Positions 7,999-49,442 of a stretch of DNA of 64,000 bases are shown piece by piece. Source of the DNA: a virus (lineage: Duplodnaviria; Caudoviricetes); IMG/VR virus record IMGVR_UViG_3300049859_000309, positions 4,257 through 68,256 of that record. The stretch is one strand, 5' to 3'. The notes beneath the pieces were generated by a model. The model saw only the letters and a program-made list of their open reading frames with translations. It had not been told where the DNA came from and did no database searches. A program made the position numbers and the translations under genes. The first letter of the stretch is position 1. Each line of letters opens with the position of its first letter.

Positions 7999-8203
7999 TT
8001 ATTTTCTCCATCGTTTTTTCCGTATCGGAAGCAAATTCCAAAAACATCATAGGGTATCTTATTTCGGATTTATCTACCTGTAATATAGCGTGTGGCTCAA
8101 CTCTTCCGTTGTAGTAATGATCGTACTCTATTCTGACTAAGGCCACTACCATTCCTTTTAAAAGTTTTTTCTTTCGATCGCCTTTTTTAACTACCACTTT
8201 CAT
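7976..8203 (-). CDS. Hypothetical protein
   Basis: 75-aa ORF in operon. Confidence 0.65.
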   Translation of the reverse strand: MKVVVKKGDRKKKLLKGMVVALVRIEYDHYYNGRVEPHAILQVDKSEIRYPMMFLEFASDTEKTMEKINDSSLKK

Positions 8204-8522
8204 TTACTATGACCTTTACTTGTTTTCCAGATCTTTTTTTGGCATCTCTGAAAATTTCAAAATAGTCAACCATATCCTCATCTATATATCCAGCTAAATG
8301 GATTTCGTCAAAATCCAACACTCGTGCATGATACAAAGCTGTTAGACTCTGATGGTTTCCCCAATGAAAAATCACATTGGTGTCGCCTAAAAACATCGCC
8401 TTCAAAGGACTCATGACTCTTGAGTTCTGCTTCAGTCCTCTTCGAGCCGATTCGTATATTGAGTGCGCAGCAAAGTTTGAATATTTATCAGCTATGACCA
8501 GTATGTGAATTTCTTTACTCAT
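8187..8522 (-). CDS. Hypothetical protein
   Basis: 111-aa ORF whose ATG lies 7 nt after a TACTAT -10. Confidence 0.7.
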   Translation of the reverse strand: MSKEIHILVIADKYSNFAAHSIYESARRGLKQNSRVMSPLKAMFLGDTNVIFHWGNHQSLTALYHARVLDFDEIHLAGYIDEDMVDYFEIFRDAKKRSGKQVKVIVNESGS

Positions 8523-8529
8523 TAAGTAG

Positions 8530-8558
8530 ATAGTATCTCACAAAAAGCAAAAAGCCAA
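8530..8558 (-). promoter_or_regulatory. Promoter TTGGCT-N17-TACTAT (GATACTAT motif)
   Basis: Hexamers and 17-bp spacer read directly. Confidence 0.5.
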
Positions 8559-8587
8559 GAGCTGTTTCCTATTGCCCTTGGCTTTTT
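8549..8587 (-). terminator. Intrinsic terminator-like hairpin
   Basis: AAAAAGCCAAG-N17-CTTGGCTTTTT inverted repeat followed by GCTTTTTG on the minus strand; probably bidirectional. Confidence 0.6.
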
Positions 8588-8612
8588 CCCACAACGACGC
8601 ATGTGGCTCGAT

Positions 8613-8760
8613 AGCTATTGGCCAATATCTCAATTGGCTGAGTTAATTGTCTTAGCGACTCCTAGTTATGGACTTGCGTAAACTCTTAAGCAAGCACTTA
8701 ACCCTCTGCGCACTGGCAGAAGTAGTCCTAGGGTCCGATGCACATCCATCCGCAATAGCC
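8613..8760 (-). ncRNA. Candidate structured non-coding RNA of unknown class
   Basis: Terminal helix GGCUAUUG/CAAUAGCU; long helix GAC-CCUAG-GACU/AGUC-(CAUAA)-CUAGG-(A)-GUC; hairpins CUUCUGC/GCAGAGG, UUAAG/CUUAA and GCCAAU/AUUGGC; upstream AATCTTAA motif and downstream terminator. Confidence 0.55.
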
Positions 8761-8766
8761 TTTATA

Positions 8767-8774
8767 TTAAGATT
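8767..8774 (-). promoter_or_regulatory. Putative phage late promoter AATCTTAA driving the ncRNA
   Basis: Same 8-mer precedes structural genes; it ends 6 nt before the first G of the terminal helix. Confidence 0.5.
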
Positions 8775-8835
8775 GAGTGAAAAAATGGTCCGTTTTGGAG
8801 GGGCTAGGTGGACCAAGCCTAGTTTTATTTATCAA

Positions 8836-9795
8836 TTAAGAGGCAGACATAACAAGAGCTACATCTAACGCTTTTTTGTTTAGCTGTGCGCCTTGTCCAA
8901 ACCATAAGTTATCCAGCCTAACTTGATCATCGTTCCCACGATTGTACTGGAGGTGTTCAGAGATGGCGTTGTAAGCTGCCCACATAGTACCTTTTATTTC
9001 TGGCAAATCGTTTCCTCGACCTTTTTCAAACAATGGCTGGATCTCTTCTATGATTTTTTTATTGTTAATAGAGTCGAGATTTCCCTCAGCTTCTAAAATT
9101 CTAGACTGTGAATTGAAAACTAGTTTTACATATTTTTCAAGATCCTTCTGATTAATCTGTGTGTTTGCTAGCAGTCTGTACTGCTCAGCTGTCGCCTCGA
9201 ATTCAGAATTCGCCACGTCCATAATCTCGCGAATATTTTCTAGATTTTGAACTACATTTTTTGTGTGCTTAACTCTAATTAGCTTTGAGGCTTCACTGTT
9301 ATGAGCAGCAGCTAGCGTGTTTGCGCAAATTACACGAACGCTTGTAAATCCTACTCGGACAGCTAAGGTTCCGTCATGGCTATTCGATACAAGAACGTAT
9401 TTTTCTACAATATCGTTTCCTTTAATCGACATCGGATCTCGATTGATTTTCGCCAAAACCCAAACGCGCCTACCCTTTCGCAGACTGCCTGCTGCTTCTA
9501 TAGAGACTTCTTTAGAGTCAATAAAAGGTTCAAAAAATTTAAAAGCCTCTTGGTTTTGCAATGGGACGTATTTAGCCCCTACAACTCCCAAGACTGAGCT
9601 GTCCATATCTCGACGAGTTAATAGGGCCTCTAACTTTTCTCCTGACGAAGAAAACACTGGCTCTGTAGTAACTTTCCAATCAAGCCCTGAAGCAACAAGA
9701 GCATCTTCTAAAGAAGGAGCTTGTTCAAAGCTGTGACCTAGTTTATGCCAAGGTGCCTGACCTACGTACATCATTTTTTCTATTTCGTGACTCAT
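8836..9795 (-). CDS. DUF932 family (TIGR03299-like phage/plasmid) protein
   Basis: MSHEIEKMMYVGQAPWHKLG N-terminus, GSLRKGRRVWVLA, SNSHDGT, RVICANTL, GTMWAAYNAISEH motifs; start 9795 after GGAGGG. Confidence 0.85.
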   Translation of the reverse strand: MSHEIEKMMYVGQAPWHKLGHSFEQAPSLEDALVASGLDWKVTTEPVFSSSGEKLEALLTRRDMDSSVLGVVGAKYVPLQNQEAFKFFEPFIDSKEVSIEAAGSLRKGRRVWVLAKINRDPMSIKGNDIVEKYVLVSNSHDGTLAVRVGFTSVRVICANTLAAAHNSEASKLIRVKHTKNVVQNLENIREIMDVANSEFEATAEQYRLLANTQINQKDLEKYVKLVFNSQSRILEAEGNLDSINNKKIIEEIQPLFEKGRGNDLPEIKGTMWAAYNAISEHLQYNRGNDDQVRLDNLWFGQGAQLNKKALDVALVMSAS

Positions 9796-9823
9796 TTTAC
9801 CCTCCAAGGTATGTGTTTAATTA

Positions 9824-9852
9824 AAATTACTACACCTCTATTTAAAAGTCAA
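9824..9852 (-). promoter_or_regulatory. Sigma70-like promoter TTGACT-N17-TAATTT
   Basis: Near-consensus -35 with 17-bp spacer upstream of the DUF932 gene. Confidence 0.6.
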
Positions 9853-9882
9853 CAGTGTTTTTGCATATTTTATAAAAAGGGT

Positions 9883-9890
9883 AATCTTAA
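9883..9890 (+). promoter_or_regulatory. Putative phage late promoter AATCTTAA
   Basis: Recurrent motif, directly upstream of AGGAG RBS and the ATG at 9907. Confidence 0.55.
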
Positions 9891-9906
9891 TTATATAGGA
9901 GATACA

Positions 9907-10506
9907 ATGGATAGTTTAATATGCTGCGACTGCAAAAACCCTAAAGAAATCAATAGCTTTTATAAAAATCAAAAAAGATGCAAAGATTGTACCAAAATAA
10001 GAAACAAAAAATTCAAACAAAAAAACCCAGAATATTACGCCGTAGGAGGCAAGGGCGATGCCTATTCTAAAATAGAAAATCTAGAGGAGTACAACAAGTC
10101 TAGATATTCAAAATACAAAAGCCGCTACAAAGACTACAACCTTAATTTCCGACAATCGCCGAGAGGTGCCCTTTATAGTGTACTTGAGGCGGTCAGAGGT
10201 CGAGCGAGAAAAGCAGGCTACAGTCTTGATTTCGATTTGGATTACCTAATCACCCTTTTCGATAATCAAAAAGGGAAGTGCGCAGCCACTGGAATTTGTT
10301 TTGATTTTTCCAACGAGAGCAGATCCAAAAGATTCAGACCTTTTTCCGTTTCCGTAGACAGAATTAACTCTTTTGATGTTTACAAAAAAGAAAACATAAG
10401 ACTGGTTTGCGTTGCTTTTAATTTGGCGGTAAATTCATTCGGTGATCAAGTTTTCGAAACCATAGCTAAAGGGTATTTAAAATGTTTATCTAAATCTACA
10501 GAGTGA
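9907..10506 (+). CDS. Free-standing HNH-type endonuclease with N-terminal Zn finger
   Basis: CCDC...RCKDC; C-terminal GKCAATG...SVDRINSFDVYKKENIRLVCVAFN typical of phage HNH nucleases; start 9907 after AGGAG. Confidence 0.75.
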   Translation: MDSLICCDCKNPKEINSFYKNQKRCKDCTKIRNKKFKQKNPEYYAVGGKGDAYSKIENLEEYNKSRYSKYKSRYKDYNLNFRQSPRGALYSVLEAVRGRARKAGYSLDFDLDYLITLFDNQKGKCAATGICFDFSNESRSKRFRPFSVSVDRINSFDVYKKENIRLVCVAFNLAVNSFGDQVFETIAKGYLKCLSKSTE

Positions 10507-13447: not shown

Positions 13448-13461
13448 ATAACCTCTAGCTC

Positions 13462-13490
13462 ATATTAGTGTAAAAAATGCAAGATGTCAA
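13462..13490 (-). promoter_or_regulatory. Sigma70 promoter TTGACA-N17-TAATAT
   Basis: Perfect -35, near-consensus -10, 17-bp spacer. Confidence 0.75.
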
Positions 13491-13494
13491 TACC

Positions 13495-13525
13495 GATACT
13501 ATAGATAAAAACAGGTAATCTTTAA
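13495..13525 (+). promoter_or_regulatory. GATACTATA motif plus AATCTTTAA variant upstream of the tail module
   Basis: Both recurrent motifs lie in the divergent intergenic gap before the tape measure gene. Confidence 0.45.
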
Positions 13526-13570
13526 GGTATGGGACGGTTTCTTTCACCCTAAAAAGGCAAGTGATTTCAA

Positions 13571-15784
13571 ATGCTTAAAAAAGAGATTCGCATAGCTGCA
13601 AAACTAGATACGGGTGAATTCGACAAAACTGTCGGCGACATGCAGCGTAAGATGAAAGAGATCTATTCAACGCCCTCGGCCAGAGGCGATGTCAACCTGC
13701 AGGACCGTCTAGCCAAGGCTGGATATGGCTCAGCGGCCACAGATCAACAACGTCGTCAAGCCGACATACAGGACACTCAAAAAAGAAGAAGCGAAGAAGA
13801 GCATTTTAAAAAAATGCTTAAAAGCTATCAAGATATCAATAAAGAATTAGACGCTAGAAAAAAGATCATGGACGATCTTGAAAAAACCAATCAAAAAATG
13901 TTTACCGCTGAAAAACAGCAGTACGACAGCCTACTATCTACAAAAAAAAGACTACAAGACTCTTTAGGCGCTAGCCTAGATAGAAAAGAAAGGCCCTCTT
14001 TTTTAAACATTGCTCAAAGTTTTCAGCGCGGAGGTATTAGCGGCGGCTTAGGCGCTATGGGCATAGGAGCCTCTGCTTTAGGGTATCTAGGCCTAGCTGG
14101 AGCGGCTGGCGCTATGGGAATGAACATGTATAACACAAACATGGTCGCTCCCCAAATTGCGCTATCAAATAACGCACAGGCTACCCAAATAGCAAGTTCT
14201 CGGTTAGTCAGAGCGGCTCAAGGAGCAGGTGCTTTTGAAGACGTGTATTCTGGAAACCGAATCGAAGCAGAGTCTTTAGCAAAGGAAAAATACTCCAAAT
14301 CTCCCCTTAGTGATATTTTTTCTTCAAAACCAGGCTCTATTCTGGGAAATCCATTAATCGTTGGAGCCTTGACACGAAAGGCTGGTCTTAAGTATTCCGA
14401 TATTTATGAATCTGGTCGGACATCTGAATATGCCCAAAACATTCAGTCTAATTTTGAAAACTTAAAACAAAAAGACCCTCTTCTTAAAATTGGCGTGGAT
14501 TATTTTGCTCAAAATGGACAAAGAGACCTTGGAGTCCAGAGATCTCTAGGCATGAATCAAGGCGACCTGATGTCTTTTTACAATCAAGGGAATAGGGCTG
14601 GATTTACAAGAGATCAGCTTGGCGGAGCAGCTGCTGGAGTTCTTGGAGCTGGCGGGTCTACTCGAATGGCTCAGGGCGCAGCTTTTACAAATAGAATGCA
14701 ATCGGTCTATAACATGACAAACGCAGCGCAGGACCTCGGCTCTATTTCGGGAACTTTGGGAGACGCTGGAGCGTCGCAAAATACATATTTAAGAATTATG
14801 TCGGAAGCTGTTCGACTAGGTTTTGATAAATCTCAGTACGCAGAAGAAAACAGAAAATTTACAAGCATTGTTGCTCAGACAATTGGCTCTATGGGCGTTA
14901 GATCTGAGGGAAAAGCTAGTGAAATAGCATCCCAAATATCTAGCTTTGTTACTGGAAACACAATGAGAGATATTGGTATTGGGCAGTCCAACTTCGATGT
15001 ATTTCAGAGCCGTCAAATAGAAGGCGGATCACGAGAATATTTAAGACTTTCATCTCTTTCTTCTAAATTTAAAGGCTTGAATTCTCAAACCGCAAATTCT
15101 TTAGCCAGTATGCCAGAAGGAAGTATTGATACATCCAATCCTGAATTTCAATATCTTTACGAACAAGTAAAAAAAACAAATCCAGACATTGGTTCTATAT
15201 CAGAGTTTAAAACAGAGGTAGACAGGTCTAGAAGATACGGTCAAAGCGGCTTAGCTGGAGCAAATCTGGATAAGCAAATTTCAAAACTAAGATCTATGAG
15301 GGCCTACTATTCTTCTGGCGAAGAGGCTATGAAAGATCCAGAGTTTCAATCAACTCTAAACGAAGCGATGATGGCTCAGCGCTTTATTGATGAAAAATAT
15401 AAAAACGCACCTACCGACGTTCTTCGTTCGTCTATTTTAGGACAGGCTGACTTTGGATCTGGTGGGACGGAATCCCAACTAGACCCAACACTTAAAGGCG
15501 CTACAGTACAAGATCAGATTAATAAATACAACGCAGCCCAAGAAACAAGATTTAATGAATCTATTTCTAGAGCTGGCGAACAGCTCTCTCGTTTAGGAAA
15601 TGCTGCAGAACCTTTAATTGATGCTATTATTAGATTAACAGGAGCATTTACTTCTGCTTACGCAAAGGCTGGGACCGACGTCGAAAGATCTAGCTTATCT
15701 CGACAGTTTAATGAAAAATTAAACCAGCTCACTCCAGAATCAGTATCTCCAAGAAGATCTGGCTCTTCAACTAGGGAGCCTTAA
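13571..15784 (+). CDS. Tail tape measure protein (putative)
   Basis: 737 aa; N-terminal EIRIAAKLDTGEF, coiled coil, Gly/Ala-rich hydrophobic stretch; first gene of tail module. Confidence 0.7.
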   Translation: MLKKEIRIAAKLDTGEFDKTVGDMQRKMKEIYSTPSARGDVNLQDRLAKAGYGSAATDQQRRQADIQDTQKRRSEEEHFKKMLKSYQDINKELDARKKIMDDLEKTNQKMFTAEKQQYDSLLSTKKRLQDSLGASLDRKERPSFLNIAQSFQRGGISGGLGAMGIGASALGYLGLAGAAGAMGMNMYNTNMVAPQIALSNNAQATQIASSRLVRAAQGAGAFEDVYSGNRIEAESLAKEKYSKSPLSDIFSSKPGSILGNPLIVGALTRKAGLKYSDIYESGRTSEYAQNIQSNFENLKQKDPLLKIGVDYFAQNGQRDLGVQRSLGMNQGDLMSFYNQGNRAGFTRDQLGGAAAGVLGAGGSTRMAQGAAFTNRMQSVYNMTNAAQDLGSISGTLGDAGASQNTYLRIMSEAVRLGFDKSQYAEENRKFTSIVAQTIGSMGVRSEGKASEIASQISSFVTGNTMRDIGIGQSNFDVFQSRQIEGGSREYLRLSSLSSKFKGLNSQTANSLASMPEGSIDTSNPEFQYLYEQVKKTNPDIGSISEFKTEVDRSRRYGQSGLAGANLDKQISKLRSMRAYYSSGEEAMKDPEFQSTLNEAMMAQRFIDEKYKNAPTDVLRSSILGQADFGSGGTESQLDPTLKGATVQDQINKYNAAQETRFNESISRAGEQLSRLGNAAEPLIDAIIRLTGAFTSAYAKAGTDVERSSLSRQFNEKLNQLTPESVSPRRSGSSTREP

Positions 15785-21562: not shown

Positions 21563-21595
21563 TATAGTATCTATAACAAATCCGTTCAATCTTAA
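21563..21595. promoter_or_regulatory. Divergent promoter pair: GATACTATA (minus) and AATCTTAA (plus)
   Basis: TATAGTATC at 21563-21571 and AATCTTAA at 21588-21595, each a few nt from an ATG. Confidence 0.55.
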
Positions 21596-21599
21596 GAGT

Positions 21600-24191
21600 A
21601 TGGCTAAAACCTTTGGACAGATACCAACCCCAGACATAGATTCAAGTCTAGACTCCTTAAAAGCTAAGGCGGGTTTGCCCACGGCATCATCCCAAGATGC
21701 TAAAAATCCAATAATTTCAACAGCTTGGGATTCCATTGATGCAAAAAATAGCATGTTTAAGCCTATTACGATCGACGGCGCTCGATGGAATAAAATGTTT
21801 CCGTATCGATTTCTTGTCGTGGCCGAAAACGAAACTGGCGGTTTTTCTATAGTTACCGCTGAAGGCGCTAAGGTTTTTGATAAAGTGTCCGTTGTAAAAA
21901 ATACAGCAAAGGGCCAAACCAGACTGTCTTTTTCAGCCCCTATCGCTAATTGGGAATACTGGCTTCCGATAACTCCTCAACAGCTATCGGTTTCAACCCC
22001 ATACGCTATTTCCAATACAGCCTTGTTGCGCGGAATCATGGAAGAGCACAATGGCGTTAAATATAAAATTATCTCAATGGCGGGAACTTTCGGGGTATGG
22101 CCTAATCGACCTACCGTAAACGCAAAAACTCCTTCTGGAGTAGCTTCTTTTTTTACAGGAACTATAGCCGCTGCTGGAAATTTAGCCAATCAGGTCTCGG
22201 CTCTTTCAGGCAAGATCTCAGCTTCTGATGACATATCAAATAATGAAGGCGGTTTTGCTGGAACTGGATACGCCCATGCTTTATTGTTAGATCAGTTTCT
22301 TGAACAATACGCCGAAGCTAAAAAAAATCCAGAAAATGCAAGATGGAGACTTGTTTTAGATATACCTAAACAAAACCAGTCTTTTTTGGTCACTCCCATT
22401 CAATTTGTATATAATCAATCAGCAGAATCTCCAAATGAAATCAAGTATAGCTTGCAATTAAAAGCATATAAAAGAATAGATCTAAATGCGAGCGCGTTTG
22501 AAAACAACACTCTCCAAGATCTTTCCCCTTCTTCTTTGCAAAGAGTTGTTTTTGCTGTGGCTCAGTCTAGAAGAATTGTATCCGCAGCTTTAAATTTAAT
22601 CAAAGCTGTTCGATCTGATTTTCAAGCACCCCTTAACACGCTAAGACAGGTTTCTTTATTTTGTAAAGATCTTGCTGGGATACCAGCTGCGCTAATTGAC
22701 CTCCCTAACCAACTACTGTTTGATTTGCGGTCTGCTATGACTGACACAATAAGTAATTTAGAGGACAGTGCTCAGATTTTACAAAAAGCACAAAATAGAG
22801 ATAAGCTTCAAATATTTAAAGAACAGAAAAGATCTACAGAGGGGCTTTCCGTTAGTGCTGTCGAAGGCGGCCAATTAGGCCAAACAGCAATAAACAATCT
22901 CAAGACTTCCGAAATTAATAAATTTTTTAAATCTCCTGAAGAATCTTTTGACATATTTAACGCTGTTGACGTTTCTTCTTTAAGTCTTACTCCAGAGCAG
23001 CAAGACGCTGTAGATAAAGAAGTAGAGGCTGTTCGTAATTTTACAGTAGACGACTTAAGAGAAAAAAGAGCCGAAATTTTAGACCTTGCTGTAAGAATTG
23101 CTAATAATTTTGGAGCAAGTACTGAGCTTGTTAGTAAGATTTATAACAAGCCCGCTCCTTATGAGCGCGTACAAGCAATGACAATTGACGAGTACGTTAT
23201 ATTAAAAAGTCTTTACGATGTCATTCAGTCTATTGATGTGATTACAGCTTCTAGTCAGCTAGACGATCTCAGAATCCAAAACGCTTATGATTTTGTAAAC
23301 GACCTTGCCGATCTAAATGATATTCCATTTAATACCGCTACAGCTAAAATATTGGTGCCCGTACCATACGGCTTAAATATGGAACAAATAGCATACAGAT
23401 ATCTTGGCGATGCCGATCGATGGCTTGAAATAGCCACCCTCAATGCTTTAAAAGAGCCCTATATTGATGAAGTTGGATTCAAAAGATCTTTTTTATCAAA
23501 CGCCGATGGAAGGCAGTTTAATATAGAGTCAAAAGAAAATCTTAATATTGGTCAAAAAATTACAATAAAAAGTATTGCTCAGCCGCCCACTCAGCGCCGC
23601 ATTACAAACATTGAAAAAATTACAGATAATAACTATTTAATAAGCGTGGACGGAGAGGCTGATCTTGACGTATACACCACAACAGACTCATCTTATTTAC
23701 AGGCTTATTTATCAGGAACCGTAAACAGCCAATCTCAGATTTTCATACCTTCTGGCGAAACCGCTCCCGACGATATAAGATCTAAGGTTGTCCCCATAGC
23801 TTCTCAAGACGCTCTTGTTGGCATGTCTAAAATAGACTGGCTACAGACCGAAGATGGCGACATAGCTTTAGATGCTTTTGCCGAACCAAGACTTGCATAC
23901 GGCCTAAACAATCTAATCCAAGCCCTAAAAATGAAGTTTTCCGTTGCGGCAGGTCAGCTGATCAAAAACCCTAAATTTGGAGCTGGCGTATCTGTCGGCG
24001 AAAGCACAGCTGACATAGAGTTAAGAAATCTTTACTCCCAAGTCAGAGAGACTATTATATCCGACCCTAGATTTAGCGATATCAATAAATTAGAGATATT
24101 CCTAGATGGCCCAACACTTACGTTTAACGTATTGGTTACCATAGCCCAAAACAGAGGGATTTTGCCGATTTCATTTAGCGTAAGCTCCTAA
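21600..24191 (+). CDS. Baseplate protein: tube-initiator-like N-terminus, LysM-like domain, C-terminal gp25-like wedge domain
   Basis: VPYGLNMEQIAYRYLGDADRWLEIATLNAL (LysM/tail-X-like); NNLIQALKMKF...NPKFG...IISDPRF (gp25-like); likely start MAKTFG at 21600. Confidence 0.7.
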   Translation: MAKTFGQIPTPDIDSSLDSLKAKAGLPTASSQDAKNPIISTAWDSIDAKNSMFKPITIDGARWNKMFPYRFLVVAENETGGFSIVTAEGAKVFDKVSVVKNTAKGQTRLSFSAPIANWEYWLPITPQQLSVSTPYAISNTALLRGIMEEHNGVKYKIISMAGTFGVWPNRPTVNAKTPSGVASFFTGTIAAAGNLANQVSALSGKISASDDISNNEGGFAGTGYAHALLLDQFLEQYAEAKKNPENARWRLVLDIPKQNQSFLVTPIQFVYNQSAESPNEIKYSLQLKAYKRIDLNASAFENNTLQDLSPSSLQRVVFAVAQSRRIVSAALNLIKAVRSDFQAPLNTLRQVSLFCKDLAGIPAALIDLPNQLLFDLRSAMTDTISNLEDSAQILQKAQNRDKLQIFKEQKRSTEGLSVSAVEGGQLGQTAINNLKTSEINKFFKSPEESFDIFNAVDVSSLSLTPEQQDAVDKEVEAVRNFTVDDLREKRAEILDLAVRIANNFGASTELVSKIYNKPAPYERVQAMTIDEYVILKSLYDVIQSIDVITASSQLDDLRIQNAYDFVNDLADLNDIPFNTATAKILVPVPYGLNMEQIAYRYLGDADRWLEIATLNALKEPYIDEVGFKRSFLSNADGRQFNIESKENLNIGQKITIKSIAQPPTQRRITNIEKITDNNYLISVDGEADLDVYTTTDSSYLQAYLSGTVNSQSQIFIPSGETAPDDIRSKVVPIASQDALVGMSKIDWLQTEDGDIALDAFAEPRLAYGLNNLIQALKMKFSVAAGQLIKNPKFGAGVSVGESTADIELRNLYSQVRETIISDPRFSDINKLEIFLDGPTLTFNVLVTIAQNRGILPISFSVSS

Positions 24192-24248: not shown

Positions 24249-27200
24249 ATGGCTGACAAGACTAACGTACAGAGTTACGACCAATTTTTAACCGATCTTT
24301 TAAGTGCGTATCAGGCAAAAACTGGCGTTAACGATAACTCTCAAGCCTCTTTAATAGTTTCTTTTTTCGAAGTCGTCGCTTTGACTGGCGGTCGAATATC
24401 TGGTGATATCTTTCAAATCTTGAGAGATCGATCTGTAGACCGAGCCGAAGGCGACGAACTAAGACGAATTGCTGCCGATGAAAAAGTTCGCGAAATACCA
24501 GCCCGAGTAGCCACGGGAACTGTAAAAATCACAGATACCTCTTTTAATAAAATCGCAACAAAGGTTTACGCTGGAACAAAAGCTCCTAATATCGGATCTA
24601 CTCAAATACCAATTTCTAACGCTACTAATTTTCCAGCAAGTGGATCTATTTATATAGGTCGCGGAACCGCTAACGTTGAAGGACCTCTTTCTTACACATC
24701 AATAACTCCAAGCGGCAGCTATTCAATTATTAATTTATCAGTTCCTACAAATAAATTTCACAACATAAATGAATCTGTAATTTTAGCTCAAGGCGGCGTC
24801 AGAACAATCCCTATCGGAACAGTCGTTAAGGCCCCTGCCTCTGGAGCAACCGAAGATATATCTTTTACAGTAAATCAATCTGCTGTTATTTTAGATGGCG
24901 AAGTTTCAGTATCTAACGTCTCTGTTGCTGCTCAAAAAGCTGGCATTTCAGGAAACGTTCCTTCTGGAGCGATTAAGGAAGTAAATGGGCTTTCTTTTGC
25001 AGCCGCCGTAACAAACGAAATAAAATTCTTTTCAGGGCGAGATATTGAAACTGACGAAGAGCTTAGAATTAGAATCAAGCGAGCAAGACTTTCAAAAGGA
25101 CTTGGTACTGATTTAGCTATTAAAAATTCAGTTATCGGAGCTACTCCGTCCGACGAGCAAACATCTATCGTAAGTTCTGAAATAGTTAGATCCGACAACC
25201 AAACCTTTTTGTACGTAGACGATAACACTGGATACGAACAAAAAACAGCTGGAGTAGGCTTAGAGTATTTAGTAGACTCTGCCCTTGGTGGAGAAAAAGT
25301 TTTTCAATTAGAAACTGGCGGAAGACAGTCTAGCGTCGTAAAAGCGTTTATTGCTTCTAATTTACTAAGCCCTTTTGACGTAAAAGGCTCTGATGCTTTG
25401 GCCATAACTGTAGGCGGAGTAACCACTGAACATGTTTTCAGTTCTTCTGATTTTACAGCCGAGGGAGCCGCGACGTCTTATGAAATCGTAGCATCTATTA
25501 ACGGAAACCCTGCTTTAGATTTTCAGGCCGCTACTACAGAAAATGGAACAAAATACAGAGTTTTTGCAAAATCGGAATCTAACGAAAATATACAAATTGC
25601 CTCTCCATCTACATCTGGAAGAGATGTTGCTGTTTTAACTGGAATGCCATCAAACGAATTTCAGACCATTAGGTTATTTAAAAACAAGCAGCCTCTTTCT
25701 AAAGACGGACAACTAGCTCAGTTGTTTTCAGAAAATCAAACCAATTGGTCAAACCTTATAGCTAACGGCGATACTATTACTGTGGCTGTGGATAACACGG
25801 CCCCAATCACATATACAATTCTTGATGCCGACTTTATTAACGAAGGAACCTATCCAAGCGTATCGGCAAATAACTCTTTAGAAAGCTGGATTAATGTATT
25901 AAACGCCAAAGTAACTGGAGCCACATTTTCCATTATTGGAGATCAAATAGCCGTATCTTCAAATCTTGATAGATCAAGCAGAGCTAAAATTGAAATCGAT
26001 CCATCATCAAGCCTAGTCACTAAAGGAATGTTTACAGCATCTCAAGGCCTTTTGATTTCTGGCAAAGATTCTGATTTTACTTTTTCCGTAAACACGGCTC
26101 AGATAACTCTTACGGAACCCTTGTCTGTCGGCGATGAATTGACAGTGGGATCTTTTGAAACCGAAGCCCGTCTTGAATCTGTTCAAATCTTAGGAGGAAG
26201 TCTTACTTTTTCTTCAGATGCTTATTTATGGTTTGTTATTGACGATCTTCTATCGGAAGCGATCAACACTGGACTAGCGACTAATTCTATTTTAAATGTT
26301 TCAAAGCCTTCTGCTAATATATTACGTTTTGATACTACCACAGCAAACGCTTTCAGTACTCTTCAGGTTGGCGACTATGTAATTGTTTGGAGTCCTCAGG
26401 TAAATGCAAGCAATAGACTAGAAGCTCGCGTAAACGCTGTAACAGCAACATCTTTTGATATCAAAATAACTCCTGCTGAATTTGCCTCTGCTGTGGCGGA
26501 AGCTGGTTTAGTTTATCAAGAAGGTATCAGCTTTTCTAGAACATCTTCAGTTCCGTTAAAATTAAAAATCGCATCTGGAACCAAAACATTAAGTGAAATT
26601 TCTACGGAGCTTACAGCTCAAACGAAAGCCCTTAGCTTTTCGGTCCTTTTAGATGAAAAATTAGTAATCAAAACTTCTACGCGAAGCGTCGGCGGATCTT
26701 TACAGTTTATCACAGCAAACCAATCAGCATCCGTTTTGGGTTTTTTGGCTGGATCTAAGGACGTATCAAAAGATTCTCTTGTAAGTTTTTATGAAACTGA
26801 TTTTACAGAAGGCTCGTTCCCACTATTTGCTCACTCGTCATACTCAGCAGGAACTTCGGCCAATCCTCCAGATTCTTTTATTTCTAGTGCCTCGTCGGTA
26901 TTAAATCTTAGCATTGCAGGCTTTGACCCTAATTTATCTATCGGTCAGCTTCAACCATTCGGTTCTATCTTGGACACCCTATCACCTAAAAGAATAACAA
27001 TAGCTAACTCTGTTGCTGGTTCTAACATAGGCTTAAAACAAGACTCGTTCATTAAACGATTAAGAGCTAGCGATCGATATTATGTGGCCAGTAATTTAGA
27101 TTTTGGTCACGGCGACAACCTTGTTATAGTTCTTGATGACGACACGACAAACAAAACGTTTGATGTTCCGTTGTTTAGAGAAGCTGTCACAAATACAACG

Positions 27201-33299: not shown

Positions 33300-36041
33300 A
33301 TGAGCGTACTCCGTCAAGCCAACTGGTTAAGTCAACAGCGAGTTGATGTAAGCCACATGAGATCGATCGAATCTGCTGTATCTAGCGATTTTGATGATTT
33401 GTTAAAGGGTTTTTTAACTGGAAACCAAAAAAGCCTTATAATCCGAGGCTTTAAGATCAACTGGACCAACGCAATAGGCTCGGCCTCTAACGGTCTTCAG
33501 GTTTTGGTCGCGGATTCAGCAGTTCTTCACTCCAATTCAAATCAGTCGGGTACTTTTTTTACAGTGCCTTCTACAGCTACTCCAGAAATATTAAACTCAA
33601 CAATTAATACAAAAGTTTCAGGAGCGTTTGCTCCTAATTCTATTAACTACGTTGGTTTGGAATACGATCGAATCGTTGACGACTCAACAGCGGATCTTGT
33701 TTACTTTTTTAGCCCTACGAATAAAAACGAAATTTCAAAAACGACCCCACTTGCCAAAGTTTTAAAATATAAATTTGTAATCACGACTAGCATCTGGGCA
33801 TCAAATGTATTACCAATTGCCAAAGTTACTACCGATTCTTCAAACAATGTAACAAATGTTGAAGACGAAAGAAATATCTTAGGTCGTTTAGGCAAACCTT
33901 CTAGTGCAACATCAAGCCCATCTTACGTTTATCCTTGGATAGACGGTCGCCAAGAAAACGCATCGTCTAGTAACAGTCCTGCAGTAAATCCTTTTGCTGG
34001 CGGAGATAAGCAGATTAGCTCACTTAAGGAATGGATGGATGCTATCATGTCATCTATCCTTGAAATCAAGGGAACTGTTTACTGGTACTCTCCAAATGTT
34101 GGAGGATCTGCTGTAAACTTAAGAGCTGATTTAGGGAATACTGTATTTACTGGACGCGGAAGCATCTCTCATAGCGCAATAACTGCGGGCCTATTAAACT
34201 GGTCTGAAGACGTCTATGCTAGAATTATTTCTAGTCGACTTAGCTATAAAATATTAGCTAATCCATCGTCTTCAGATTTAACGTTACAAGACGACGAAGC
34301 AGCGTATATAAATTTAGTACGTGGCGTACAAATTGTTCCAAATCTTATTTTCGTAAACAATGGAGCAGGCGTAACGTCTGTTGGTAACGTAGCTTGGACA
34401 TCTGGATTGCAAGCTGGAGACTGGGTAAAATCCGCTAGCGAAGACGATACGAAATATTACGAAATATTGACTGTTGACTCAGCGTCTCAAGTAACCCTAA
34501 CAACTACATATCAAGGACTTGATACTGCTCCATTGGGAGTAAAAGCTAAATACGCTTGGGGCGTTTACGAAACAAGCCCGACCCCAACCACCAATCGTCA
34601 TATTAAAATAGCGTCTAGAAAAGACGTTCCTTTTAATGAAGATATTTACTGGTTATTTTTAAGAAACGATAACGGCGGTATCTTACCAAGAGTTTACGCC
34701 AGATTCACAGGTTCTGAATTAGAACAGGGCGAATCTCGTGACATGAATGACAATACGTCCGATCAGCTTTTACAGTACATGGGCTCGACATCAGAGACTG
34801 ACTCATCTCCTAGTTTTTCTACTCAGTTAGGAATACTTGAATCAGAGCAAACAAGAGTCACGTTCCCATCCGCAGCCTCAATATCTTCTAGTCAGTATTT
34901 TTTATTAAACTCGGCTGGCGACATCAACCAGTATTTTGTTTGGTATCGAAAAGACGGTGTGGGAAGCTCTCCTACAGTAGCTGGTCGAATTGCTATTTTA
35001 GTAGACATCCTAACGGGAGATTCTAGCGATGACGTAGCTTTAAAAACAGCTACGGCTATTTCTGGCTTTCCTCTTGATTTCACATCTTATAATATAAACA
35101 ACGATTGTTGGATAGAAAACACTCAAGCTGGAGTTACAACTGACGCAGCTAACGTGAATGTAAACTTGGCCAGCATTTCGGTTATTGTTCAAGGTTCTGG
35201 GAGACCTAACTACGTAGTAATAGACGGAGACGATTTAACTCTTTCTATTAAAAGGCTAGATCAAGCAATTGCAGGATTATATGATTCACTTGAGAAAAAA
35301 GATTACGAAGAAACATTATTTATCGGCAGCCCTCTTCCGTCTAACACTATTATTACTATTCCTACTGATAGCAGAAACTCTAATGTTTTTAGATCTTATG
35401 TTGTTGGCGACGGCGAACTAGAGGTTTTCTTAAATGGTCTAAAACAAATTGAAGGCGACGACTATTTAGAAGTCGGAAGTCTTGGAGACCAAAGCAATCA
35501 AATTGAAATGCTTTTTGCTTTGGTTGCTGGAGATCAATTTCAGTTTAGAATAGACCCAACAAGAGCGCACGCATTAGCTGTTAATTCAGGAGAAGCAAAC
35601 ACTGGATCGAATCTTGGCTCTGGATCTAGCGTGTTCAAAACTAAAGTTGGTGTTAATTTTCAATTTAGAAAAATAAACGCTGGTGTCGGCGTAACCGTAA
35701 CAGAAAACACGAACGATATAACAATATCTTCGACTCCTACTGCTGCTTTATTAAATATCACATCTATCAGTGGAGTAAATTACTCAGCTACCTCAGCAAA
35801 CGACTTCATTAAAGCCGCCAATAGCGGAGTAAACATCACAGTAACCCTTCCTTCGGCTGTCGGTATTGCAGGTAAAGTTCTACATATTAAAAAAACAGAT
35901 ATTGGAAATACTTTATTTGTCGCATCAACTCTTAGCCAGACTATTGATGGCGTCGATGCTACCGCTACTCCAATTGCGATAACGGTTCAAAACGAAACCC
36001 TAAGTATTGTTAGCGATGGCGCAAACTGGATGGTGATCTAA
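33300..36041 (+). CDS. Baseplate/tail-fibre attachment structural protein (913 aa)
   Basis: Beta-rich, modules shared with the giant J protein and the tail fibre; C-terminal ITVTLPSAVGIAGKVLHIKKTD...SDGANWMVI typical of fibre tips. Confidence 0.65.
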   Translation: MSVLRQANWLSQQRVDVSHMRSIESAVSSDFDDLLKGFLTGNQKSLIIRGFKINWTNAIGSASNGLQVLVADSAVLHSNSNQSGTFFTVPSTATPEILNSTINTKVSGAFAPNSINYVGLEYDRIVDDSTADLVYFFSPTNKNEISKTTPLAKVLKYKFVITTSIWASNVLPIAKVTTDSSNNVTNVEDERNILGRLGKPSSATSSPSYVYPWIDGRQENASSSNSPAVNPFAGGDKQISSLKEWMDAIMSSILEIKGTVYWYSPNVGGSAVNLRADLGNTVFTGRGSISHSAITAGLLNWSEDVYARIISSRLSYKILANPSSSDLTLQDDEAAYINLVRGVQIVPNLIFVNNGAGVTSVGNVAWTSGLQAGDWVKSASEDDTKYYEILTVDSASQVTLTTTYQGLDTAPLGVKAKYAWGVYETSPTPTTNRHIKIASRKDVPFNEDIYWLFLRNDNGGILPRVYARFTGSELEQGESRDMNDNTSDQLLQYMGSTSETDSSPSFSTQLGILESEQTRVTFPSAASISSSQYFLLNSAGDINQYFVWYRKDGVGSSPTVAGRIAILVDILTGDSSDDVALKTATAISGFPLDFTSYNINNDCWIENTQAGVTTDAANVNVNLASISVIVQGSGRPNYVVIDGDDLTLSIKRLDQAIAGLYDSLEKKDYEETLFIGSPLPSNTIITIPTDSRNSNVFRSYVVGDGELEVFLNGLKQIEGDDYLEVGSLGDQSNQIEMLFALVAGDQFQFRIDPTRAHALAVNSGEANTGSNLGSGSSVFKTKVGVNFQFRKINAGVGVTVTENTNDITISSTPTAALLNITSISGVNYSATSANDFIKAANSGVNITVTLPSAVGIAGKVLHIKKTDIGNTLFVASTLSQTIDGVDATATPIAITVQNETLSIVSDGANWMVI

Positions 36042-39505: not shown

Positions 39506-40771
39506 ATGACTAAATTAGACGCAAGACAAGTTATTTCAAGACAGATTTTGGATAAAGTTTTAGGATTAGCAACATCATCTTTAGATTTTTTGCTATCTCA
39601 GTTCAACAAAGAAATAGATACCCCAATAAGAATGGCAGCTTCAAATCCAGTTGATGCAAAAATTAATTTTTCACCAAGCTCGGTGGAATCTGCGGATTTG
39701 GCTGCTAAAGTAGCCTCTCCAGTCGATCTTTTAATCAATTCTTTTCCAGCCTCTACCGTAGACTTTCAAACTGGAGCTACGACTGGCGGTACTTTTTCGA
39801 TAACTTTCCCAGCCTCAACTGTTGGGCGTTTTCGAAGAGTTGGTTTTAGTTTGAACAACTTAGGTGTTATGGTCGGGACATTTACTGCAGAATCGGTTAC
39901 CGAAGGAGCTTTAGCGAACGCTGGAACTCTTTTTCCTGTGGGCAATATTCCAGTTGGCTGGATTGATTTGGTTTGTACGAACGCATCTGGACAATTTAAA
40001 ACAATAGGTTCAGCATCAAATGTTATCGAGCACAAAACCTCTGGAATTAACAGAGTTCATCGATTTATTAATCAAGCACCTATTCCAGCATCTTCTACCT
40101 ATACCCCTACAAACGTGATAAGAATCACAGCTACTGGCGCAGGAATCTATACGCCAACAGCTGGAGTTAAGCGCATAAGAGTTAAAATATTAGGTGCTGG
40201 CGGAGCTGGTGGTCTAAACAGCACTACTGGCGCGGCTGGAGGAGCAAGTTCTTTCAGTGATGCTATAGGCCCTAGAAGCGTAACGTGTAACGGCGGCGGC
40301 GGAGGAACTGTAGCTATAAGCACTAGAGGTGTTAGATTCGGCGGAACTGGCGGCGGTTTTGTTACTGCTGGATTAGTTTCGGATTGGGAGTTTGACCATC
40401 TTGTAAAGGGTGGGGACGGGCAAAACGGAAGTCCAAATAACACGTTTAATGCTTTTGATGGAGTCAGTGGTTCTGGAGGCTCCTCTTTCTTTGGCGGCGC
40501 TGGTCGCGGAGGAACTGCAGATCCATTAACAGCGGCTTTATCTGGCGGAGCAAATACTGGATCTGGCGGCGGAGGACTGTCAGGAAACGTTCTTAGCGTC
40601 AACTCTTACGCTGGAGCAGGCGGCGGCGGAGCTGGAGCTTACGCTGAATTTGTTATCAATCAAGCTTTTATTGCCACTAGTTATAATTATTCTATTGGTG
40701 CGGGTGGAGTTGGTGCAGCTGGAGTGGGTAGTGGCGGCTCTGGAGTTTTAATCATAGAGGAAGAATTTTAA
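39506..40771 (+). CDS. Tail fibre protein with glycine-rich C-terminal domain
   Basis: YTPTAGVKRIRVKILGAGGAGG...GGGGAGAYAE...YSIGAGG...GSGGSGVLIIEE. Confidence 0.75.
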   Translation: MTKLDARQVISRQILDKVLGLATSSLDFLLSQFNKEIDTPIRMAASNPVDAKINFSPSSVESADLAAKVASPVDLLINSFPASTVDFQTGATTGGTFSITFPASTVGRFRRVGFSLNNLGVMVGTFTAESVTEGALANAGTLFPVGNIPVGWIDLVCTNASGQFKTIGSASNVIEHKTSGINRVHRFINQAPIPASSTYTPTNVIRITATGAGIYTPTAGVKRIRVKILGAGGAGGLNSTTGAAGGASSFSDAIGPRSVTCNGGGGGTVAISTRGVRFGGTGGGFVTAGLVSDWEFDHLVKGGDGQNGSPNNTFNAFDGVSGSGGSSFFGGAGRGGTADPLTAALSGGANTGSGGGGLSGNVLSVNSYAGAGGGGAGAYAEFVINQAFIATSYNYSIGAGGVGAAGVGSGGSGVLIIEEEF

Positions 40772-40775
40772 TAAA

Positions 40776-40818
40776 CCCACCTAGAGTGGGATTTGTAAAG
40801 GGGCTGTTACGCAGCCCT
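40776..40818. terminator. Two hairpins separating the convergent structural and replication modules
   Basis: CCCAC-CTAGA-GTGGG-ATTTGT (plus) and AGGGCTG-TTACG-CAGCCCT (T-rich run follows on minus). Confidence 0.6.
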
Positions 40819-40822
40819 AGCC

Positions 40823-41824
40823 TTACTTACCGTCAACTTTTAAAATGGCTTTTACCATATCACGAGTTTCTTCGCGAGTATTAGCTAAATTAATTCTGTA
40901 AGAAAATTCACTATCACCTAAATCAAATCCAGAGCTAAATTCAACACAGGCTTCTTGTAAAATATTAGCTATTTTTCCATCTGCTTTGCTAAAAGCGAAC
41001 ATTCCATGATCTGGGATAAAATCTGGCTCAAACATGTATTGAAGTTTCTGAACTTCGGTTCGATTGTCATCAAGAAGATTTTTTCCAGCTTTCCAAAAAG
41101 CTTCTAAATCAACAGTCTTTAAAAATTTACTTATAAGCTCTTGGCCTATAGAGTTTACCGTACAGGCATCTCCTTTAACATAGTCTAAAGCTAAAGAATA
41201 TAAAACAGGATCGTTGGTAGCCAGCCATCCAACGCGAATTCCATTAATTGAACTAAACTTGCTATAGCTGCCAACCATAGCCTCGTGCTCTGGAAATGTT
41301 TTTAAAAAAGAACTATCTTTTAAATAGGTAGGGCTGTGGTAGGCTGCATCCCATACAACCCCTTGGGCTACAGCAGTTTTATTTAGTTTGCCTTCAGGGT
41401 TTGAAGGCGAGTCGATTATTGCCAAGTCAGTGCTATGGTCAAATTGATGAGTATCGTGCTTTAAGTGAATCATGTTTTGATTTTCAATAATCTGAGGATA
41501 CATCCTGTAGTAAAGCTTGTTCGTGAATACGCACAGGTCGTCAATCGTGGGTGATGTGGTTTTTTTTGCGTAAAGATAGGCATTTAAAGCGTTAGTGGCT
41601 CCAGCTGTTATGAGAACATGCTTGTATTCTCTACCCGTTAGCGTTTTGATTAATTTGTGAGTTTCTAGTAAAAGCTCTGGTTTTCCTTCATGGGGCGCAT
41701 AGCCTCCATGCAGGTCCCAATCTATTACAGAGGACTGTAGAGCAAAGTTAAAGAATTTGTCCAAGGTCATTTTTCGAAGACCTTTAGTGTCGCCCCAGCT
41801 AAAAAAATATTTAATTTCTGACAT
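40823..41824 (-). CDS. PLP-dependent class I/II aminotransferase-fold enzyme
   Basis: ITAGATNAL, IDSPSNPEG, WDAAYH, GSYSKFSSINGIRVGW (PLP Lys), YRINL; likely start MSEIKY at 41824. Confidence 0.85.
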   Translation of the reverse strand: MSEIKYFFSWGDTKGLRKMTLDKFFNFALQSSVIDWDLHGGYAPHEGKPELLLETHKLIKTLTGREYKHVLITAGATNALNAYLYAKKTTSPTIDDLCVFTNKLYYRMYPQIIENQNMIHLKHDTHQFDHSTDLAIIDSPSNPEGKLNKTAVAQGVVWDAAYHSPTYLKDSSFLKTFPEHEAMVGSYSKFSSINGIRVGWLATNDPVLYSLALDYVKGDACTVNSIGQELISKFLKTVDLEAFWKAGKNLLDDNRTEVQKLQYMFEPDFIPDHGMFAFSKADGKIANILQEACVEFSSGFDLGDSEFSYRINLANTREETRDMVKAILKVDGK

Positions 41825-43031: not shown

Positions 43032-43040
43032 TATAGTATC
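43032..43040 (-). promoter_or_regulatory. GATACTATA motif immediately upstream of clpP ATG
   Basis: TACTAT ends 6 nt before the ATG; no RBS. Confidence 0.45.
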
Positions 43041-43051
43041 CTATTCTGAGA

Positions 43052-43903
43052 CTAAGATCTAGCTTTTTTTACGCCAGATTTGACAGAAGCTTCCCACTCA
43101 TGTCGTTTAAAATCGTACTCTTCTTCAAAATAGGGCTCAAGTATAGCTAAAGCCATATCCTCGTCACAGCCACTATTGCCCAGACCCAAGCCAAATTTAA
43201 ACCATGTATTATTTCTACCCTTGGTAAAATCGATGCCTTTAATAAGCTGTTTTTTTAACCATCTCGGGACGTGATTAAAATCGTAAAAATCTTTTGCAGC
43301 GACCTTTTGCCGCATTTTGGGCATTGACTCAGGATATCTTGAAAGCCAGTTTTTTAAATGATCTAGACTTATTCTCTGCCTAACAGATAGTAATTTCTGC
43401 TTGACGCCGTCTCGGTAATTGTTAGGGAATCGAATACTTCTAGATGGGTTTTTTGTTTGCTGGTCTGCCTCAGATAAAACCGCAAGCATCCAAGATGCGT
43501 AAAAATTATACACATCAAGGCTTGGAAGGCTTTCCTCTAAGCATACCGCAAAATGTATGGACTTGGAGCCTGAAAATACGGCAGCTGAGTAGGGTATTTC
43601 CATGCTTTTAATATAAGATAGCTGATCATTCATATCGCCATTATCCATTTCGATTAAGAAATTTCGCATAGCGGTAACATTCTGATCGTTTCTTTGACCC
43701 TTGATCGGATTAATTGCAATCATTTTGATTTCATCCGTTGGGACCTCGACAATAGCACTTTCTAAAGAAGTCAGCTGAACCACGTCCTTATCTAATACCT
43801 CTTGAAGAGATACGCTAGAGTACCCATACTTATTGGTACTGACGCAGACTTCCTCATCTGCATCAAAAAGAACGCTTAAAAAGTCAACGACTTCTTTTTC
43901 CAT
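43052..43903 (-). CDS. DNA primase, AEP/PrimPol-like, with C-terminal PriCT-like domain
   Basis: NFLIEMD, FSGSKSIHF, DQQTKNPSRSIRFP; C-terminal GRNNTWFKFG. Confidence 0.7.
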   Translation of the reverse strand: MEKEVVDFLSVLFDADEEVCVSTNKYGYSSVSLQEVLDKDVVQLTSLESAIVEVPTDEIKMIAINPIKGQRNDQNVTAMRNFLIEMDNGDMNDQLSYIKSMEIPYSAAVFSGSKSIHFAVCLEESLPSLDVYNFYASWMLAVLSEADQQTKNPSRSIRFPNNYRDGVKQKLLSVRQRISLDHLKNWLSRYPESMPKMRQKVAAKDFYDFNHVPRWLKKQLIKGIDFTKGRNNTWFKFGLGLGNSGCDEDMALAILEPYFEEEYDFKRHEWEASVKSGVKKARS

Positions 43904-48437: not shown

Positions 48438-49442
48438 TTACTGATTGATCATTTTCATAAATTCTTCATCAGACATGGCATTTACGTTTTTACCAGCAGC
48501 GACCGCCGTATTTGATACGGTAGTTGTCGTGGTAGCGTTTTGAGATGTCTGTGTCTGAGTAACTGGTGTGCTCTGTGCGGCTTTTTCAACCACTGGAGCA
48601 GCAGTTAATTTGTTTTCTGGAATGTCGTCAGCTTCTTCAACCTCTTCCGCAGTTTCCGCCACAGCAGAAGATGCAGAATTGCTATTTAAAATAGCATCTA
48701 ATGTTTTAACGTCTCCTGCAATATCAGCCTTAACAACAGCTTCAATTTCTTCTGGAGTCAACACCTTAAACATTTTAGTAAGATTTAAAGAAACTTCATC
48801 CTCAAGACGATTTAAAGTGGCCTCGTCAAGCTTGGCTACTTTTTCTTTTTCTACCTTACCCACTCCTGCGATTTCCATTGATTCTTTGTATGTAAAAACC
48901 TGATGAGCCGTGTCTAAAGCATTTCCAGATCTACGGAAAACTATAAAGCGACCGTTTTCAACATCCATAATATCGACACCAGCAGCTTTTTGACGATCGA
49001 TCTCTAATCGCAAAACTTCCATTGATTTGTAAGGAATTTTTAAAATCCCTAACTTTCCATCTAAAGTCATAGCGTTCATGTAGAATTTCTTGTCAAGATT
49101 ATATCGCTCTTTTAGAGATTTGTACATTTTGGCTTTTTCTACATCGCGAACCTCTAAGGCCTGCTTGTATAAAGCTTCAATCTGATCAATTCGATCGCAA
49201 GCCAAATCAGGCACTTCAACCATTTTGGTTTTACGGTTAACTACCTTGGTTGATAAAAATGGCTTCATGCGGCCAGTAGAGTCTTTGTAACCAAAATGAG
49301 TAGCTAGGTAAGCATTCCATTTACCTTCATCTGCTAACTCGCCTAGAGGCGGCAAGATCATAAAAACTGAATCGCCATCCTTTAATTTAAAGATTTCTCT
49401 ATTGCCTTTTCCTGTTTTTGGTTTACCGATTTTTACTGCCAT
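48438..49442 (-). CDS. Phage gp32-like ssDNA-binding protein (putative)
   Basis: FKLKDGDSVFMILPP...HFGY...KKFYMNA...GRFIVFRRSG; low-complexity acidic C-terminus. Confidence 0.6.
   Translation of the reverse strand: MAVKIGKPKTGKGNREIFKLKDGDSVFMILPPLGELADEGKWNAYLATHFGYKDSTGRMKPFLSTKVVNRKTKMVEVPDLACDRIDQIEALYKQALEVRDVEKAKMYKSLKERYNLDKKFYMNAMTLDGKLGILKIPYKSMEVLRLEIDRQKAAGVDIMDVENGRFIVFRRSGNALDTAHQVFTYKESMEIAGVGKVEKEKVAKLDEATLNRLEDEVSLNLTKMFKVLTPEEIEAVVKADIAGDVKTLDAILNSNSASSAVAETAEEVEEADDIPENKLTAAPVVEKAAQSTPVTQTQTSQNATTTTTVSNTAVAAGKNVNAMSDEEFMKMINQ

Follow-up and report, generated by a model that had tools for sequence, protein, structure and literature searches.

What does a large phage keep in 313 nucleotides that no ORF claims, and could the answer be an RNA? 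The question is raised by positions 8523-8835 of the window, by which we mean the whole 64,000-nt stretch of DNA analysed here (bases 4257-68256 of an IMG/VR viral contig that is 68,256 bp long and has an estimated completeness of 43%). As the first-pass annotation of this DNA had observed, these positions form the window's largest ORF-free gap; the other gaps are of 211 nt or less. That annotation went on to propose a self-contained unit for a new structured RNA, dense in helices and furnished with its own late promoter and its own terminator. Our answer is a tentative one: we put at about 40% the chance that the gap is an orphan, independently transcribed gene for a small noncoding phage RNA of about 215-220 nt, encoded on the minus strand.

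The gap and its neighbours

The phage is large and tailed, with a genome of about 150 kb and a baseplate. Its window has a G+C content of 39%; the plus strand from 13.5 to 40.8 kb carries the tail and baseplate block, and the minus strand carries genes of replication and nucleotide metabolism, along with many small ORFs. No cultured phage close to it was found when the gap and 20 kb around it were compared, by megablast and blastn, with 50,697 INPHARED phage records. Where cultured phages were sought, the best protein-level relatives of the DUF932 protein encoded beside the gap were less than 46% identical, and the phage's DNA polymerase brought out no kin in the related-locus search. One patch of up to 60% G+C (40084-40844) spans the 3′ half of a 421-aa tail-fibre-assembly-like gene (39506-40771).

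Read along the minus strand, the gap passes from the end of the DUF932 gene through a weak hairpin with its U6, the motif AATCTTAA, a core, a small hairpin, a terminator and the box GATACTAT to an orphan, apparently leaderless ORF (Table 1).

Table 1. Features in and around the gap, numbered from the first base of the window
Feature	Positions	Strand	Basis or remark
Sigma70-like promoter of the DUF932 gene	divergent intergenic region 9808-9908	minus	TTGACT-N17-TAATTT, just upstream of the gene
DUF932 / TIGR03299 "phage/plasmid-like protein" gene, upstream of the gap	8836-9807	minus	PF06067, phrog_1221
Weak terminator-like hairpin	8780-8815	minus	UGGUCC/GGACCA, 18-nt loop, then U6
Promoter-like motif CAATCTTAA	8767-8775	minus	same 9-mer before genes starting at 21600, 24249 and 33300
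Core of 148 nt, closed by P1	8613-8760	minus	fold and pair probabilities
P1	8753-8760 with 8613-8620	minus	GGCUAUUG pairs with CAAUAGCU
P2 hairpin	8747-8750 with 8737-8740	minus	core fold
P3	8728-8735 with 8657-8665	minus	core fold
P4 hairpin	8716-8722 with 8703-8709	minus	core fold
P5	8690-8695 with 8672-8677	minus	core fold
Single-stranded stretch, 18 nt	8639-8656	minus	core fold
P6 hairpin	8633-8638 with 8621-8626	minus	core fold
Small hairpin CCACA/UGUGG, between core and terminator	8589-8606	minus	fold
Intrinsic terminator	8542-8587	minus	arms 8574-8587 and 8549-8562, 11-nt loop, U5GCU5 tail
GATACTAT box	8530-8537	minus	7 nt before the ATG of the 111-aa orphan ORF
Orphan ORF, 111 aa, downstream of the gap	8187-8522	minus	no family
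GATACTAT 6-7 nt before the ATG of two further genes	21564-21571 (start 21557); 43033-43040 (start 43026)	minus	

The 111-aa ORF earns the word "orphan": its sole match among 5.8 billion proteins is itself, in the form of a fragment. That fragment (75 aa, exact) and an exact 198-aa fragment of the DUF932 protein sit on separate short contigs, of 2229 and 1396 bp, which may come from another assembly of the phage that breaks at or near the gap. On the far side of the DUF932 gene, a free-standing HNH (endonuclease VII-like) gene at 9909-10506 lies on the plus strand between two minus-strand genes, a placement typical of the insertion of a mobile homing endonuclease; its start is likely the ATG at 9909, which follows GGAG, rather than 9745.

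Where transcription might begin and end

If an RNA is made here, what would start it and what would stop it? The stop is readily pointed to. The terminator at 8549-8587 is a G+C-rich hairpin followed by a U run, its stem made of 14 pairs (nine in a G+C-rich helix, extended by A-U pairs) with arms that are 93% complementary, and the 3′ 90 nt of the unit that include it fold at -27.5 kcal/mol (z = -2.85). An A-run lies upstream of it, so that it could act bidirectionally. Both this terminator and the small hairpin that precedes it are found where the first-pass annotation had put them. The hairpin that comes first after the DUF932 gene is, by contrast with this strong one, a poor terminator, and may be a decayed or leaky remnant of that gene's own.

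The start is a matter of motifs. There are 10 copies of AATCTTAA in the window, and four of the nine outside the gap are followed, within 70 nt and on the same strand, by a start codon, where 4% would be expected (binomial P = 5e-4); the motif precedes the HNH gene, the baseplate gene at 21600, a 2186-aa gene at 24249 and a 913-aa gene at 33300. The longer 9-mer CAATCTTAA occurs four times in the window, all four times between genes, and the gene at 13571 has a near-copy, AATCTTTAA, ahead of it. The idea that AATCTTAA is a putative promoter of the unit gains from this recurrence, in sense orientation, ahead of start codons. Three structural genes have a further box, GATACTATA, upstream of AATCTTAA, and for that reason AATCTTAA could be a second promoter or an element of the 5′ UTR. 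The label "late" is a tentative one, taken from the sharing of AATCTTAA with tail, baseplate and HNH genes. We note too that the divergent intergenic region at 13448-13570 holds, like the one at 9808-9908, a near-consensus sigma70 promoter for its minus-strand gene (here TTGACA-N17-TAATAT), and that the plus-strand genes across these two regions bear AATCTTAA or AATCTTTAA.

A second motif, GATACTAT, is present in 12 copies, and six stand a short way ahead of starts (P = 4e-6). In three genes, including the 111-aa ORF, it stands so near the ATG as to leave no room for a ribosome-binding site, which suggests that a TACTAT-type -10 box gives rise to leaderless mRNAs. At the gap it combines with TTGGCT, 17 nt upstream, into a sigma70-type promoter, a weak one, overlapping the 3′ arm of the terminator. 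Neither AATCTTAA nor GATACTAT is shared by the related contigs; the promoter box of relatives, CGATACAAT, is one base different from GATACTAT.

It matters that the orphan ORF has a box of its own, because an RNA made from the gap then need not be that ORF's leader. One could still imagine a leader acting in cis, with AATCTTAA driving an mRNA of the 111-aa ORF and the small genes that follow, and with core and terminator forming an attenuator, a riboswitch-like sensor or an antitermination RNA of the put/EAR kind. The order of elements (promoter, 150 structured nt, terminator and ORF, all on one strand) is the classical order of an attenuator, and the terminator ends just 25 nt ahead of the ATG. 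HK022 put, the EAR RNAs and riboswitch leaders also place a structured RNA between a promoter and a terminator with downstream genes. The gap differs from these in several ways: the 3′ strand of P1 and the terminator do not overlap, being set apart by a separate hairpin and about 25 nt, which leaves no obvious pairing for an antiterminator; the next gene has its GATACTAT box, in the leaderless layout of two other genes; and no riboswitch, T-box or leader family was matched in sequence or model, even at E ≤ 10. We think a leader distinctly unlikely. If the gap instead encodes a free-standing RNA, its transcription would start about 6 nt past AATCTTAA, near 8761, and would end at the strong terminator, at about 8542.

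The predicted fold

What would such an RNA look like? From AATCTTAA (8767-8774) it is 6 nt to GGCUAUUG, which pairs with CAAUAGCU and encloses 148 nt, just as had been noted at first, and because P1 begins at this short distance, the 5′ and 3′ ends of the core would pair together. With the core folded alone, the helices GAUG/CAUC, CUUCUGC/GCAGAGG, GCCAAU/AUUGGC and CCUAG/CUAGG, all of them seen in the first-pass annotation, have pair probabilities of 0.8-1.0, and this range holds for P1 to P6 throughout. The junction that it favoured, with GACU/AGUC and UUAAG/CUUAA, fares poorly: its pairs have probabilities of 0.01-0.02 and it is 4 kcal/mol costlier, and GCUUGC/GCAAGU, then mentioned as an alternative, is the preferred pairing (0.9-0.98). 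The first 148 nt of the transcript would, in this fold, be shut by P1 into a four-arm domain with one single-stranded stretch of 18 nt. The core's loops contain no recognisable GNRA, UNCG or T-loop tertiary motif.

Helices, of course, can be found in almost any RNA if one looks for them, and the question is whether these are better than chance would supply. They are, barely. The core folds with a minimum free energy (MFE) of -46.0 kcal/mol (z = -1.8 to -1.9), and 6-14 of 150-300 shuffled sequences fold equally well; the helices exist, in other words, and the density attributed to them is hardly above that of shuffled sequence. The plus strand of the core gives the same value (about -1.9), with no preference for either strand. 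The whole unit of 221-230 nt reaches z = -2.3 to -2.5, in part because of its terminator, and -2.4 to -2.7 on the opposite strand. For the 230-nt fold the centroid and the MFE structure are not the same, the CCACA/UGUGG hairpin being able to pair instead with the P2 loop. The ensemble diversity of the core falls in the lowest 9% of shuffles. When every 148-nt window of the 64 kb was scored with normalisation for G+C, dozens, nearly all of them coding, beat the core; the minimum z was -4.3, and the exact frame of the core would score about -2.1. The most stable of these windows lie inside coding regions, at 43753-43900 (minus, -4.3), 48469-48616 (plus, -3.8) and 21613-21760 (minus, -3.6). How much should be made of such numbers? 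We calibrated them on two known stable RNAs, and T4 rnaC scored -4.6 and T4 rnaD -0.8, a spread that means a z-score neither proves nor rules out a stable RNA.

These statistics bring us to the main rival of the small-RNA reading, which is that the gap does nothing. The DUF932 mRNA would run past a decayed first terminator to the strong one at 8549-8587, and what lies between would be a long 3′ tail or spacer, perhaps foreign DNA left over from recombination in a hypervariable region, its helices a matter of chance in DNA of 47% G+C. Much is consistent with this: a core z of -1.9 that shows no strand preference and is unexceptional in the genome-wide scan, the poor quality of the first hairpin as a terminator, the absence of conservation in the collections searched, and a hypervariable neighbourhood whose small ORFs the relatives lack. 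Other things fit it badly. A recurrent motif stands exactly 6 nt before the closing helix, and the fold is well defined when the core is taken alone. Phage spacers are usually A+T-rich; the core, at 47% G+C in a genome of 39%, stands at the 96th percentile of all windows, an unusual value for DNA between genes. Compact phage genomes rarely retain 215 nt of inert DNA, and in this one the other gaps are shorter than that. On balance we regard a functionless tail or spacer as a serious possibility, though not a probable one.

Relatives, other readings and likenesses

Is the RNA one that we should have recognised? The claim that it belongs to no known family has held up. A check of the whole window against the 4227 models of Rfam 15 (which include tRNA, tmRNA, 6S, SRP, RNase P, Y RNA, pRNA, C4, riboswitches, small ribozymes and group I/II introns) gave no match at gathering score, and at E ≤ 10 the region 8450-8900 drew only miRNA-hairpin matches to the terminator and a 19-bit match to SSRC38, whose threshold is 80 bits. 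ARAGORN, likewise, reported no tRNA or tmRNA at its default setting, with introns allowed or with lowered thresholds, and placed no tRNA gene anywhere in the window. The spacing of the core's arms resembles that of a cloverleaf (2 nt, 1 nt, variable, 0 nt), which we treat merely as a curiosity because there is no T-loop (the P6 loop is UGAGAU). A two-piece tmRNA and glutamine riboswitches occur in Melnitz-like marine phages (PMC9004378), with which this phage shares a distant DUF932 gene; we considered both RNAs for the gap and dropped them, there being no ARAGORN or Rfam signal for either.

Could the gap be coding after all? Two ORFs might hide a small protein, one of 66 aa on the plus strand (8668-8868) and one of 54 aa on the minus strand (8652-8816). 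The first has seven matches in a library of 1.84 billion proteins, the best at E = 9.5e-18, a chance result inflated by tandem PG_binding_1 repeats, since the matches are of one 23-residue stretch (11 of 23 identical) to 5-11 such repeats in cell-wall hydrolases. This ORF has no Pfam or PHROG family and no ribosome-binding site, and it runs antisense into the DUF932 gene; the 54-aa ORF begins with TTG and also lacks a ribosome-binding site. We give a hidden protein almost no credence. The related notion of a pseudogene was set aside as well: no frame of the gap matches Pfam or PHROGs, and tblastx finds no similarity to the relatives.

The search for homologues of the candidate RNA itself relied in part on a covariance model built from the core (R1), which, on the phage's own record, matches the core alone. 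Neither R1 nor blastn found a homologue in the full records of four related contigs, nor did R1 find one in 80 further DUF932 loci (755 kb in total); blastn of the gap gave nothing in the 50,697 INPHARED records or in plasmids. Exact and degenerate patterns run against viral, metagenome and genome contigs brought up chance matches only, of which one metagenome match (L012) and four genome-contig matches were all rejected by R1; L030 and L031 are chance matches that fall within coding sequence. With no homologue in the collections searched, there is no covariation to weigh.

More can be learned from what surrounds the gap in other phages. In contigs whose DUF932 protein is 63-79% identical, a canonical terminator lies directly 3′ of the gene and is followed by a spacer of 60-85 nt. 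Since the relatives' terminator abuts the gene, the extra 215 nt or so found here looks like an added unit; and since no flanking small ORFs are shared with these relatives, the region appears to be a hypervariable accessory one, and the unit specific to its lineage.

More distant loci, with DUF932 proteins 44-49% identical (L039-L067), present another picture. There a conserved stretch of 250-480 nt, poor in ORFs, comes after the gene (L039:5951-6300, L059:5948-6365, for example) and is composed of a terminator, two palindromic units of the form ACGTAAGT...ACTTACGT, a sigma70-like promoter (TGGACA-N17-CGATA[TC]AAT), one more palindromic unit of that kind and a conserved block, CCTAATCC..GGATTTGC..GATAGTCAGC. 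It has no Rfam match, and because its units fold weakly it looks more like an operator and promoter than like an RNA. Homology of our gap to it was considered and rejected, all that the two have in common being an 11-mer and 33 nt at 82% identity (E 0.14), on the opposite strand. These loci also have 7-10 tRNA genes beside the DUF932 gene, 1-2.5 kb upstream and 2-4 kb downstream of it, and they contain matches to the Pistol ribozyme (52 bits) and one to abiF RNA (38 bits), at L051:998-1060, L059:756-818 and L039:8113-8149.

Might our gap, like that stretch, work as DNA? It could be a scar of recombination or homing, a regulatory region bound by protein, or a replication or packaging signal with inverted repeats. 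That both strands fold equally well would suit such an element, as would the HNH endonuclease gene 1 kb away on the other strand and the conserved, regulatory-looking stretch, with its palindromic boxes and promoter, of the distant relatives. Against it, an nhmmer profile of the relatives' region fails to match the gap, which holds no iterons or repeated operator boxes, every helix in it differing in sequence from the others. Direct repeats 314 nt apart came to nothing (33 of 91 positions identical, within the range at other offsets), and so did the template repeat of a diversity-generating retroelement or any internal repeat, there being no second copy in the genome. We consider a DNA-level element improbable.

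What, then, might a small RNA from this gap resemble? T4 rnaC and rnaD (species 1 and 2 RNA) are stable phage-encoded RNAs of 119-139 nt whose function is unknown, and the likeness extends to their setting, with early or accessory genes around them and a homing endonuclease gene alongside, and to the tRNA cluster in which the DUF932 gene sits in the phage's more distant relatives. T4 rnaC, however, has a canonical tRNA T-arm and is cut from a tRNA precursor, whereas the core here has no T-loop; R1, run without filters on T4 69000-76000, found at best 7.7 bits (E 0.45) on the wrong strand, which is chance level. The phi29 pRNA (RF00044) is also a structured RNA encoded by a phage, of about 120-174 nt and with paired 5′ and 3′ ends, but it is made from an early promoter in small phi29-like podoviruses, and no Rfam match to it appears here even at E ≤ 10. 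Packaging was one of the roles that the first-pass annotation had suggested, along with a decoy and a new ribozyme. DicF, IpeX, lambda OOP, the C4 RNA of P1/P7 (RF01695) and the CI RNA of P4 share with the candidate a plan in which 50-200 nt run from a dedicated promoter to a Rho-independent, U-tailed terminator, and they too are encoded in accessory or immunity regions; they differ in that most are short with an open seed, whereas the candidate is a closed multi-arm domain of 148 nt with no family match.

Where does this leave the proposal of a self-contained unit? Its layout stands, with a recurrent promoter-like motif at one end and a strong terminator at the other; its folding is marginal, and it has no homologue in the collections searched. 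That layout, the enrichment of the motif ahead of genes, the terminator and the lack of any coding or known-family signal are observations; promoter activity of AATCTTAA, the build-up of a discrete RNA and a functional role for its fold are what we infer. Such an RNA would probably act in trans, as a stable structured molecule that binds a host or phage protein or pairs with a host transcript; among the phage's own translation start regions, no base-pairing target stood out beyond shuffled controls. Because the nearest relatives lack it and its surroundings are a hypervariable run of small accessory genes, the unit looks like something that this lineage has acquired. One may go further and imagine a late RNA of a wholly new class, specific to its lineage, a stable four-arm domain of 148 nt expressed from a promoter that has no -35 element, acting on a protein (as a decoy, for instance, for a host defence or RNA-polymerase factor, or as a component of the virion or of packaging) and acquired as a mobile "RNA moron" among the accessory genes; that reading, taken whole, we find doubtful.

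For the present there is a single sequence on one metagenomic contig, with marginal folding statistics, and its value is that of a well-delimited candidate for transcript mapping rather than that of an established system. Stand-alone genes for noncoding RNAs in lytic phages are few, and their roles are mostly unknown. Should this one prove real, their number would grow by an orphan that runs cleanly from promoter to terminator, and this orphan would also offer a handle on the promoter classes of its lineage, AATCTTAA and GATACTAT(A), the latter of which apparently gives rise to leaderless mRNAs.
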